A DNA stretch of 64,000 bases from Eledone cirrhosa (taxonomy: Eukaryota): positions 7,316,001 to 7,380,000 of the forward strand of contig OZ024744.1 of assembly GCA_964016885.1 (NCBI GenBank), given 5' to 3'. Within the stretch, counting starts at the first letter, position 1. The number at the start of each line of letters is the position of its first letter. This document shows positions 4,236 through 59,970 of the stretch, one piece after another. A program made the position numbers and the translations under genes. The notes beneath the pieces were generated by a model. The model saw nothing but the letters and a program-made list of their open reading frames with translations. It searched no databases and was not told the origin of the DNA.

Positions 4236-4437
4236 TTTATTTTATAGAAGGAGCTTCTACAGGACCAGTACTGTTTCATTCAGATGAAATCTTCAGGAAG
4301 CTTCCTGAAGATTTCATCTGAATGAAACAGTACTGGTCCTGTAGAAGCTCCTTCTATAAAATAAAAAAATTTTACTCTGCCATGTATTGAGTACCTTACT
4401 TACTGTGGTTATCCCCGACTCAACCCGGGACCTACGT
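4236..4437. mobile_element. Mini PLE-derived fold-back: perfect 130-bp palindrome (4236-4365) plus ~70-nt extension, flanked by (TA)n
   Basis: Spacer-less palindrome centred on AAG|CTT at 4300/4301; each strand holds a complete HHR. Confidence 0.85.
4299..4349 (+). ncRNA. Type I hammerhead ribozyme (mirror copy 4252-4302 on -)
   Basis: agcttc-CTGAAGA-t-ttc(atct)gaa-t-GAAA-cag(tactggtc)ctg-TA-gaagct. Stem I covaries (cttc/gaag vs attc/gaat) in the relative at 12615-12660(-); another relative lies at 22299-22346(+). Confidence 0.8.
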
Positions 4438-4571
4438 ATATATATATATATATATATATATATATATATATATATATATATATATATATATATATATATA
4501 TATATATATATATATATATATATGAAAGACGTAAAATAAGAAAATTATAAAAATTAACTTACTAAAATTTC

Positions 4572-4654
4572 ACTCCAACTAATTAGTTTCTGAAAGGGAA
4601 TAAACATGGTTTCCGAATGGAACGCATGGAGAAAATCTTTCGTCATCAGGAAGT
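4572..4654 (-). ncRNA. Hammerhead ribozyme with extended stem II
   Basis: acttc-CTGATGA-c-gaaag...ctttc-a-GAAAC-taatta-GTT-ggagt on the - strand; palindromic stem III. Confidence 0.7.
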
Positions 4655-4879
4655 CTGTTCTCAGCTAAGTTCCCAGGCGATGCGTGGACACAGGGAACTT
4701 ATACACAAATAATTCAGTGGATGGAAAAAAGCAAGCGTGGAGTAAATTCCAAGACATTGAAAAAATCACTGCCTACTTGGTCGGTGGCAAATTCAAAAGA
4801 ATCAATCACGTGACATCGAGGTTAATCAGTGAGGAGTGGGGTGTTAAAAAGACAGTAGCCGAAGCATTACTATGAACTA

Positions 4880-5805
4880 TAGTAGCAGTTTTGACAAATT
4901 CTGTAAAACTAGAAACGTAGTCTATAGCATAAGATGTACAGAGGGTACTTGCAGAAACATGACAACAACATACATAGGTGAGACAGCTCGTAGCATAGGT
5001 GAAAGGATAGACCAACACTGGGGGGAACTAAAAGGACGAAAAAACGGGCCAGTACTATACGAACATGCTAGACAACAACATGACGGTAACATAGACAACA
5101 TAGAAATTAGTAAAATATCTAAAAATAGAAATGACCCAGCAGATATACAAATCAGAGAGGCCAGTGAAATAGAAATTAGAAGACCAAGGCTAAACAGAAA
5201 GAATGAATGGAATAACAACAACACCCAAACAAACAACACTGACCTAAGAGAAGTATAAATAAGTAAATAAAATAAAATAAATAAATAAATAAATACATAC
5301 ACAAGCACAATAACAACAAGCACATAAACACACACTAGTCACCCATCACACAGCAAACAAAACACTATACACACACGCAAACGCATGCGCAAAGAAGACA
5401 AAATAAAATAAACAAACAAGCAAATAAATAAATAAATATATAGACAGACTGAATAAAAATGGCGTAGACATACAATACAACAGGAGGAAGATATAACACC
5501 ACTGACGTTGTTGCAGATGTGAAACGAAAGATTTATGTTAAACTATATATATGTGTTTGTGTCTATATTGTATCTGTATTATTTTTGACCGTCGGTCAGT
5601 CAATGGCAACATTGAGGACTGAGTAAGTTAGATTACCGATATAAAAGACACAGAAGCGAGAAGCGAAAACCAACCAAACAGGGAATGTGTTCTGTTATTA
5701 ATTCTGGCAATATTACACAAATATGACCCTCCCCAAGTATAACAATATTTGTTTCGACACACGATTTCATATAAAAAAACCTCGCAAAACTAATTCATCG
5801 CCGCT
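4880..5805 (+). mobile_element. PLE 3' remnant (GIY-YIG C-terminus + pLTR), Neptune-like family
   Basis: CKTRNVVYSIRC...YIGETARSIGERIDQH; 3' end homologous to 10700-11065 and 57300-57805; degenerate HHR at ~5494-5540. Confidence 0.85.
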
Positions 5806-5848
5806 ATATATATATATATATATATATATATATTATATATATATATAT

Positions 5849-6469
5849 GATGGCTGTCCCCTCGTTATCGAGTATGGCAATTACACGATATATCATTATT
5901 AATAATTATTAATTAATTCTATCGTGCAATACCTGTGCATGAAGATATTTTTTAAAGTGAGGAAAGACTGTGCACTGAGCCAATCCCACTCTCTGAGCGA
6001 CAGTATCTATAACCCGAAAAGAAGAAAAGATCAACATCATCGGTAACTACTGAGCTGCAGGTTTTATATCGGAGTTATCCCAGTTTCCTGAGTTGCCTTC
6101 TCCTAGAAGAATGCCCTGACATAGGCTAGGGGTCCTTCACTCCCAATGGCTTAACCGCGTAATCGGGTGTCCAGCCCGACTATTTCTATGTCCCAGCGCA
6201 TAAACATGCACATGTACATGTGTATATACACATATACATATACATACATATGGACATGTGTATATACATATTTACACACTTTTGTATGGCCGTTGACTCT
6301 TATGAGTTCTTCCGCCCTTTGTGAGGTTTCGTTTTTTGTCCTGCAGAGTGTCCAAAACCACCTCACCAATTAAACTTGGTGGGGTTGCCGGTTTAATCGC
6401 CGACGACCCAAACTTGCGACAGGTTGTACTGGGTTACATGTTACCAGTAGCACTCAAGAGTGACCGGAC
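5849..6469 (-). mobile_element. ~600-bp non-autonomous repeat (RTE-like 5'UTR derivative, inferred)
   Basis: Both termini shared with 42683-43279(+); partial copy at ~34315-34590; inserted in TA microsatellite. Confidence 0.6.
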
Positions 6470-57803: not shown

Positions 57804-58694
57804 ATATATATATATATATATATATATATACAACTTTTATACCTGATCCAGCCATCCCCATACATATGGGGGGGGGGGGGGGGTATATAATAATGTGATG
57901 TTACTATTCACATATTTTGATAGTCGGGTCATGGTGTTATATCACAAATGCACTATAAGGAGATTCTGCATTGAAATATTTCCAAAAACTCGTGTAATCA
58001 TTTTATTGGTACAGAATTACCTGTGTAATTCTGTACCAATTTCAATTTTTTATACCTGCCTTTTCTGATAAACATTAATGCACATAATGAAAAATGTATG
58101 TACACACACACAAACACACACACACACACACACACACACACACACACATATATATATATATATATATATATATATATATATATATATATATATATGTATA
58201 CATATATGTGTAGGTTTGTGTGTGTATTTAAAGAACAAAGATTAACAAGGATTTAATTAAAGCATTTCAGTGAATTACAACCGCTTCATTCGACTAAGAA
58301 TATTCCATAAACGCACACACATATACATAAACACACACACACACACACATACACACACATACACACATACACACACACATACACACATATATATATATAT
58401 ATATATATATATATATATATATATATATATATATATATATATATATATGTATAGTTGTATGGTTGCAATTAAATACGTCCGGAGGCAGTATGCCGTTTGA
58501 GCACTCGATGCTCGCGCGGAGCAGAATAACTATATTTGTGTCTACTTTAGGCACAAGGCCAGCAATTAACCAGTACATTACTGGTACTTTATTTTATCGA
58601 CCCCGTAAGGATGAAAGGCAAAGTCAACCTCGGCGGGATTTGAACTCAGATCGTAAAGGGACGTAACTATGCTGGAAAGCATGGCATATATTAC

Positions 58695-58882
58695 AGATAA
58701 CGAGGAGTCAGTAATGCATCAAAACACAATTTATTGACATATTACATATGTTTCTCCGACATTAATCTCAAAGCAGGATCTGTTACAGATCGAACCTGAC
58801 TCTGCATTCGCAAGTTCCTTGAGCGGATGTAATAGGTTAATAAATTGTTTTTTTGATGCACTACTGATTCTTCGTTATCTTT
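58695..58882. repeat. Diverged fold-back with HHR 3' half at the junction
   Basis: Arms ~58695-58747 / 58826-58880; GAAAC-atat-GTA on the - strand. Confidence 0.65.
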
Positions 58883-58898
58883 AATATATATATATATA

Positions 58899-59500
58899 TC
58901 AATGGAAAAAATGAAACGAAATTTCATTTCTCACTCTTAGTACGGCTGTTACTTAAATATAAGTATGTATACGTACATACATATATGTACACAGACGTAT
59001 AGTAGTATGTATATATATATACATACATGCGCACATATATATATGTACGTATGGATTCACCGAACATTTATTATAATGCTCCGTGTGTTTGTAAACAAAC
59101 ATCCCGTATTAGGCCGTAGTGTCTAGCAACCATCATTGCTCGTTTGTTCAACACTGACAAAGGAACGCTGTCCTAGTTTCAAGCTTATTAGCTATCATCA
59201 GCACCGTATACCTTCCTGCCGGATGATTGAACGTCTGAAAGTATATACGGTACTGACGATAGCTAATAAGCTTGAAACTAGTACAGCGTTCCTTTGTCAG
59301 TATTGAACAAACGAGCAACGATGGTTGCTGGACACTGTACGGCTTAATACGGGATGTTTGTTTACAAACACACCGAGCATTATAATAAAATTTCGGTGAA
59401 TCCATACGTACATATATATGTGTGCATGTATGTATATATATATATACATACTACTGTACGTCTGTATACATATATGTATGAACGTATACATACTTATATA
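58899..59500. mobile_element. Tails-out pLTR fold-back with an HHR in each arm (59166-59206 on -, 59248-59288 on +)
   Basis: ~250-bp arms; CTGA(T/C)GA-t-agct(aata)agct-t-GAAAC-ta-GTA; ~58-nt left extension. Confidence 0.85.
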
Positions 59501-59507
59501 TATATAT

Positions 59508-59970
59508 AAAGAATGATTAATAAAACAGGTAGACATCATAAAAAGGTAATTTATTCCAAGTGTTTACAAATGTTTCTTTAGTAGTTACACAGCCTAGTCA
59601 TGCTATGTGCAAATTGGTAGTTATTTATTTGCATATACTCAATTTTTAAATGTTGTTCATCCTACCAATTCTTCAGAACGATGAACAACATTTAAAAATT
59701 GAGTATATGCAAATAAATAACTACCAATTTGCACATAGCATGACTAGGCTGTGTAACTACTAAAGAAACATTTGTAAACACTTGGAATAAATTACCTTTT
59801 TATGATGTCTACCTGTTTTATTAATCATTCTTTATCTACACTCAGTAATATAGAAGAATCGGAAACCAAGTTTCTTTAACTGTTCTGTTGTAACTCGTTG
59901 AGTAACCCTCACCGTACGTCGACTTTATCTAGAGTAGTAATTAACCATTACTGCATTCAGGATAATCCTA
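59508..59970. mobile_element. Tails-out fold-back with ~155-bp arms and a long-stem-II HHR (59562-59679 on -)
   Basis: gtt-CTGAAGA-a-ttggtag...ctactaa-a-GAAAC-attt-GTA-aac; ~135-nt right extension. Confidence 0.8.

Follow-up and report, generated by a model that had tools for sequence, protein, structure and literature searches.

The insertions of the window

The stretch analysed here (the window) is 64,000 nt of Eledone cirrhosa DNA (contig OZ024744.1, positions 7,316,001 to 7,380,000, forward strand), and it carries twelve insertions of Penelope-like elements (PLEs) or of units built like them. A sequence-only reading had described all twelve as tails-out structures, in which two inverted arms have their element 3′ ends outermost; one arm stops at a short terminus, and the other continues through a tail to a long terminus. 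The coordinates hold, and TA-rich runs flank both outer ends in all twelve intervals. Self-BLAST of the window recovers inverted arms in ten of them, and the remaining two (51582–52112 and 54022–54290), whose arms overlap barely or not at all, were mapped via other copies. The pattern covers at least two PLE types as well as non-coding units. The features, with their families A to J and with strand where one was assigned, are as follows.

13063–19508, reverse strand: family A long arm, a full 4200-bp unit (13063–17262) and 2246 bp of a second unit; long terminus at 13063
19506–21123, forward strand: inverted family A short arm, 1618 bp; short terminus at unit position 163
14759–17218, reverse strand: intact 819-aa open reading frame (ORF) with reverse transcriptase (RT) and C-terminal GIY-YIG endonuclease (EN); Hydra-clade motifs RWR, DKT, YRDD, CxCx5C, VIY..YVG (without CCHH), CxxC and CxH
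17263–17424, reverse strand: internal copy of the 162-nt tail between the candidate short and long start sites
17465–17515, reverse strand: putative variant minimal hammerhead, identified by eye; core CCGAAGA...GAAA, predicted cut after 17472 (unit 210/209)
51582–52112: older family A copy, long arm of unit 1–110 and inverted short arm of unit 163–608, arms not overlapping
11129–11545: family B long+short insertion, Neptune-type linker and CCHH; tail 59 nt; family hammerhead scored at 10873
52245–53748: family C short+long insertion with a Hydra-type EN fragment inside; tail 88 nt; hammerhead at 53558
54022–54290: family C insertion, near non-overlap; long arm barely exceeds the tail, and both ends match those of 52245–53748
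4236–4437: family D, perfect 130-bp palindrome with a 72-nt tail; hammerhead-like core
41799–43824: family E short+long insertion, broken up by later repeats
47412–47615: family F long+short insertion; family unit of ~243 bp with a tRNA-Ser(GGA)-like gene
47651–47845: family G long+short insertion; its long arm lacks part of the family sequence
54387–54742: family H palindrome, an atypical copy of a single-terminus, ~720-bp hammerhead-bearing family
58899–59500: family I long+short insertion, ~420-bp non-coding unit; tail ~60 nt
59508–59970: family J short+long insertion; tail about 135–145 nt

The long and short arms of the family A copy at 13063–21123 overlap by 3 nt, and within the long arm 13063–15308 is identical to 17263–19508 (100% in self-BLAST). 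The family A unit is numbered from the long terminus (position 1), which places the short terminus at position 163. The ends said to recur between insertions do lie at homologous positions: 13063 and 51582, as well as 21123 and 52112, in family A; 11066 and 11545, as well as 5805, 11129 and 57803, in family B; 52245 and 54022, as well as 53748 and 54290, in family C. For family H the interval itself is real, but the copy is atypical of its family and its left end is not a recurring terminus. A longer family B copy at 6587–11066 ends at the short terminus and contains a palindrome (6947–7290) whose outer end is not equivalent to the long terminus.

Family A has a single ORF that combines a PLE-type RT with GIY-YIG (DKT, YRDD and VIY..YVG), and its copies show the partial tandems that form pseudo-long terminal repeats (pLTRs), the optional inverted 5′ copy and the optional tail of endonuclease-positive (EN+) PLEs. 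Proteins resembling the 819-aa product in their features bear GIY-YIG, RVT_1 and HTH_animal; sequence searches of Pfam and PDB with this protein gave no relevant match. The Hydra clade is defined by RWK, DKT, a CxCx5C linker, the lack of CCHH, and CxxC and CxH near the end of EN (Craig et al. 2021, PMC8557442). In family A we find RWR38, DKT123, CNCRANRTC678, CNLC776 and CQH804, with a single Cys between VIY and YVG, and by this motif definition the family appears to belong to the Hydra clade. The broken ORF of family B (9417–10475) instead carries CIDKKCITC and VVYIIRCTEGQCRDNYIMYIG, which correspond to the CX2-5CxxC linker and the two Cys inside the GIY-YIG core of Neptune-type elements. Hydra-type EN fragments are present in family C and in a D-like copy. 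Further Hydra-type PLE ORFs with DKT or CxCx5C motifs lie at 1798–3984 and 21520–22429, the latter in a head-to-head junction with a D-like hammerhead arm. Families E, F, G, H, I and J have the same architecture and may be linked to PLEs; families H and I have hammerhead-like motifs and tandem units.

A strict automatic scan scored only the hammerhead motifs of families B and C and did not pick up the variant core of family A. An Rfam search of the window returned low-complexity microRNA matches only, with no ribozyme among the 150 listed of 181 matches. Three arm 5′ ends fall at unit 207–211, at the predicted hammerhead cut (L121, L290 and L319), which by eye is indistinguishable from chance.

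Inverted repeats beside microsatellites are hard to assemble (PMC8557442), and the insertions might in principle be assembly or library fold-back artefacts, or two separate insertions side by side. Raw restriction-site-associated (RAD-seq) reads of two other samples contain the loose ends on (TA)n at 17261–17263 and 17425, along with opposite-strand joints (17301/17790 and 17323/17661), including non-overlapping ones. Cut sites are over-represented in such reads, and some joints start at a single place; the reads back the termini and the class of joint rather than the exact window copy at 13063–21123. The two arms also differ by 0–2% in most copies (up to 7% in old ones), have no TA between them and meet at a different junction each time. 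We consider an artefact or a side-by-side origin very improbable; inverted joints of this class do turn up in independent short reads.

Termini, pairing and candidate start sites

The 3.0-Gb genome was searched for termini, and junction pairs were listed on one chromosome (C1); the initial DNA search, which spanned the long end and was hence biased, was left out of the terminus counts. A core pattern inside the short end of family A has 2599 exact matches genome-wide, and junctions with (TA)n number 1040 for the long end and 1097 for the short end. The first 317 Mb of C1 gave a list of 197 junctions; every neighbour pair within 10 kb among them (47/47) is long+short and tails-out, with the long end on the left in 27 and on the right in 20, a pattern far outside what chance would give.

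Two samples of loci were then tallied. The first, comprising all 70 loci behind the first 100 core matches and counted by hand, holds 46 long+short copies with both ends resolved and 6 inverted copies of which one end is missing or lies beyond the stretch; 8 of the other loci are simple, 9 are unresolved and 1 is ambiguous. The second comprises 40 of the 70 unpaired junctions at 113–317 Mb (the first 20 of each type) and yields 18 long+short copies, 1 long-long copy, 3 ambiguous micro-arms and 6 simple copies; in the remainder, 2 are joined directly to a family C arm, 7 are inverted with another or unseen outer end and 3 are unresolved. Altogether, 98 distinct family A copies on this chromosome have both ends resolved; 97 of them are long+short (46, 33 further listed pairs and 18), one is long-long, and short-short copies are absent. 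Termini are bimodal, with short paired to long on opposite sides, as the sequence-only reading had anticipated; random termini or frequent same-end pairs, sought as its refutation, did not appear. Its claim that inversion is the majority product also agrees with the terminus tallies of the fetched family A loci.

The pairing extends beyond family A, to 13/13 pairs in family B, 10/10 in C, 6/6 in J, 5/6 in I (one with a partial tail) and 3/3 in D. Family F, with 19 loci from a long-biased query, contributes 13 long+short copies and one long-long. Together, these six families give 50 long+short copies and one long-long; pairs of families G and E were seen as by-catch and left uncounted. The ~243-bp tandem unit of family F contains a tRNA-Ser(GGA)-like gene according to ARAGORN and has the PLE long+short architecture (L278:976–1636, L272 and L277, among 1024 first-look candidates). 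A literature search for tRNA-derived short interspersed elements (SINEs) with Penelope gave general reviews only.

The sequence-only reading had one target strand priming at the RNA 3′ end (the long end) and the other at an internal site, with inversion arising because both strands of (TA)n read alike. Of this, two-sided priming stands, as does the pairing of long with short ends, and a transcript running off the long end would bear (AU)n that could anneal to (TA)n. However, at 10 tandem junctions of the family A sample the unit runs on past the long site without a break, and both sites share 2–5 nt of AT homology and a motif repeated after each in families A and B (TAACTGCTC and AATATCG, respectively; TAACTGCTC lies downstream of both start sites in family A). 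On these grounds, both the long and the short site resemble start sites within the RNA, like those of the anole enzyme discussed below. The family A 162-nt tail folds better than shuffled sequences (z = −3.1), and no common tail fold that would bring the two sites together was found across six families (z from +0.4 to −3.1).

The symmetry of the target fares no better as a cause. Family H (L202–L221) is a ~720-bp non-coding, retrozyme-like hammerhead unit with simple 5′ joins to (TA)n. Nineteen of its 20 other copies end at one 3′ terminus; no second terminus was found among those 20, and no opposite-strand partner lies within 10 kb among the first 100 of 265 matches. Since family H targets (TA)n yet has a single terminus and rarely inverts, target symmetry is insufficient, and a second start site in the RNA appears to matter. 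Conversely, the long+short insertion L096 lies within an asymmetric 14-bp target duplication, consistent with staggered nicks leaving two 3′ overhangs that end in AT, and a 9-bp duplication surrounds a Pen2a_Av insertion of the same shape (PMC3846280). In almost all of 47 copies (TA)n hides any target duplication; that of L096 alone is clear, and L109 and L086 are compatible with one. Both target strands most likely do prime, as the sequence-only reading proposed; priming at the RNA end and (TA)n symmetry as the cause of inversion are not supported, and that version as a whole seems unlikely.

Arm geometry and the source of the arms

In 36 two-armed copies defined by BLAST, the long arm reaches farther 5′ in 15 and the short arm in 19, with 2 ties, and the arms overlap by up to 4 kb. 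In 5 of the 36 they do not overlap at all: the long arm is just 30–88 nt, below tail length, and neither arm contains the other. By a hand count over both fetched samples, 15 of 64 long+short copies have a long arm that falls short of the length of the tail. Junctions show an apparent overlap of 1–11 nt in 27/36, at a position that differs from copy to copy.

Of the 35 loci that BLAST did not score as two-armed, 8 carry a micro-arm of the opposite terminus; six have 8–19 nt directly on the TA run, and two have a very short one followed by a jump. The background among 1316 TA-run ends is 2 and 1 for 5–6-nt motifs and 13 for a 3-nt motif. Stutters, in which terminal bases are reiterated, mark 7/40 short and 6–7/53 long termini (10 were flagged at the latter, 3 false by eye), and are the signature that abortive starts or re-priming would be expected to leave.

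These arms bear directly on a scheme of one priming: the first strand, or an antisense RNA, would prime itself by folding back, and endonuclease resolution would produce the other end. Self-priming is proposed in PMC3846280, and EN-mediated resolution in PMC8557442. Fold-back fits the perfect palindromic junctions, the excess of near-equal 5′ ends, a CATATG hotspot and the shared haplotype of the arms, and probably explains the atypical family H copy. Yet single priming with fold-back needs nested arms with the long arm as donor, and so cannot make the 19 copies whose short arm reaches farther 5′, or the five non-overlapping copies and the two like them in the window; stutters at both termini also mark both as start sites. 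As the arms stand, fold-back is already contradicted for the non-overlapping class, and as a general account we think it unlikely.

Several further features of the junctions were seen. The first 7–11 copied bases are reiterated in tandem at both termini (window 21113–21131, with the terminal bases of the short arm repeated at about 21124–21131; L062, L068, L081, L117, L133 and L296), which recalls repeat addition by the related telomerase RT. The CATATG hotspot of family C gives many palindromes of similar size (L166, L171, L182, L184 and L185; window 54190). Family D has a concentration of 5′ ends and junctions where hammerhead stem I begins, right after CCCAG (window 4300; L197, L198, L199, L044 and L255); it could mark a place where RT stops or where splicing leaves an RNA end. 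L075:470–1635 is a deleted family A mini-unit of ~520 nt that was copied for more than one full turn, and both arms carry the identical deletion.

We then considered the source of the two arms. At 15 segregating sites in 25 young family A copies, arms are concordant in 106/106 comparisons, whereas cross pairs are 35% discordant, a figure inflated by sources active at different times. Private deletions are common to both arms in L081 and L075. This concordance excludes random pairing from an RNA pool and points to arms of one source haplotype; it is compatible with a second reading of the same RNA, with two transcripts of one locus, with copying between the arms once both had been primed, or with conversion at a later time.

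Two independent element complexes, one per side and each choosing its start site independently, would accommodate insertions that join arms of different families (A+C, A+B and A+I) and copies in which both arms exceed 3 kb (L079 and L081). Such independence predicts about half same-end pairs, against the 1/98 seen, and agreement at the level of cross pairs (65%) rather than the complete haplotype agreement found; deletion between adjacent insertions would also account for the mixed-family cases. We regard independent complexes as rather improbable. The mixed-family arms (A with C, B or I) are those of L288, L298, L320, L312, L317 and L094, and are either mixed events or deletions between neighbouring insertions.

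Outside the PLE insertions, the window holds 216-bp inverted repeats at 62180–63142 (99.5% identity, AT-rich core between), possibly an element like a miniature inverted-repeat transposable element (MITE); several broken ORFs resembling long interspersed elements (LINEs) at 27375–41116 and 48099–51457, with endonuclease-like and RT-like motifs by eye; and a 42-bp tandem repeat at 23776–24240 (~11 copies, 93% matches).

Probable two-sided priming and known systems

In family A insertions both termini are fixed, long and short ends pair almost without exception, the junction differs in every copy, and the arms go back to a single source haplotype. Such insertions probably arise by coordinated two-sided priming from one template source, with a fixed internal site for each target end, and the evidence for this route is strong on sequence grounds. 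One element complex would nick both strands of an AT-rich target, and both target 3′ ends would serve as primers, one at each fixed start site in the same element RNA. Each nicked end may anneal through the 2–5 nt of AT homology at its site; a primed end would sometimes restart, giving stutters, and extension would run from ~8 nt to more than 6 kb. The two first strands would then be joined by short microhomology and filled in. Either/or use of the sites could follow from one RNA held at both, plausibly by a protein dimer. Where the arms overlap, the same RNA may have been read a second time through strand displacement, two RNAs may have come from one source, or one arm may have been copied from the other once both had been primed; the template could be a tandem read-through or a circular unit.

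Several observations weigh against this reading. One family A copy is long-long (L290, whose arms differ at several of 207 positions), as is one of family F (L279), and the simple one-armed family A copies make up 8/70 and 6/40 loci. Private variants occur in both arms in 40 cases and are arm-specific in 44, leaving room for arm-to-arm copying or later gene conversion, and the few insertions that join arms of different families do so without the long+short rule. Near-equal 5′ ends are found in 6/36 copies against 1.3 expected (p = 0.0007), and family C junctions cluster at the CATATG palindrome; both observations agree with fold-back no less than with a shared RNA end, and some events may have closed in a fold-back-like manner. 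Finally, Frangieh et al. (PMC11167929) saw no difference in start site between strands in the anole enzyme, where pairing per molecule was not measured.

A broader reading is possible, though we hold it tentatively: programmed double target-primed reverse transcription (TPRT) in EN+ PLEs, in which a dimer with one, possibly circular, RNA would use two sites and extend both nicked strands, so that the typical insertion would be two head-to-head first strands. The tail and the inverted pLTR would then be two faces of one step; simple insertion would be left to RNAs with a single start site, such as those of family H, and the route would be open even to a unit with a tRNA-like gene (family F). 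Coordinated priming would also explain how readily such copies pass for inverted-repeat DNA elements. The origin of the inverted pLTRs and one-sided tail of PLEs is named as an open question in the field (PMC8557442), and a young family A with about a thousand insertions and an intact ORF, beside the one-terminus control family H, makes it directly testable.

Much of the architecture is in print. An inverted 5′-truncated copy at the 5′ end, a one-sided tail, a (TA)n bias, partial tandems and pLTR hammerheads have been described (PMC8557442 Fig. 2; PMC3846280), as have two RT start sites. The literature searched, including Penelope with twin priming, holds no proposal of two-site, two-sided priming for PLEs, and the first part of a retrozyme preprint and passages of an octopus repeat paper add nothing on it; the coordinated two-sided route was not found in print in these searches.

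The canonical EN+ PLE unit (PMC8557442; Pen2a_Av, PMC3846280) resembles the present insertions in its tandems, inverted 5′ copy, tail at one end, (TA)n targets and hammerheads. The tails here are longer, about 40–162 nt against 30–40 in the canonical unit, the long+short pairing has here been counted and is near-strict, and the non-overlapping arms, micro-arms and stutters argue for two primings over EN resolution or self-priming. With the Hydra clade, family A shares RWR (RWK-like), DKT, CxCx5C, the lack of CCHH, CxxC, CxH, insertion into (TA)n and a putative hammerhead, but its 4.2-kb unit exceeds the clade's general size of under 3 kb (Craig et al. 2021). Circular templates have been proposed for copies longer than one unit (Cervera and de la Pena 2014, PMC4209133).

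The closest biochemical parallel is PAc (Poseidon of Anolis), an anole PLE protein whose TPRT in vitro nicks and extends both strands, with two internal RT start sites and a predicted dimer (Frangieh et al. 2024, PMC11167929). The likeness lies in two start sites that bracket a tail downstream of the hammerhead, AT-rich targets, the use of both strands and the predicted dimer. PAc belongs to a different clade, and its sites lie inside the ORF, whereas those of family A lie just upstream of ATG. The main text of PMC11167929 does not mention inversions or tie the two sites to opposite sides of one insertion.

The insertions also invite comparison with a route known from L1 elements. Twin priming of L1 starts at the poly(A) end and at a variable internal site, leaves non-overlapping segments and accounts for a minority of insertions. 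In the process reportedly described by Ostertag and Kazazian in 2001, cDNA synthesis is primed from both 3′ ends of the target, and microhomology joins the resulting first strands head to head. The present elements have no poly(A) and read through the long site, and only five of the 36 BLAST-defined pairs are non-overlapping; in contrast to L1, both sites here are fixed, the arms usually overlap and inversion is the majority product. Priming from both target ends and a microhomology joint may be common to the two: the present junctions show 1–11 nt of apparent overlap in 27/36 and one clear duplication (L096), the others being masked by (TA)n. If two-sided priming is correct, the TPRT of PLEs would be designed to produce first strands at both target ends, in contrast to LINEs and R2, whose route makes a single first strand.

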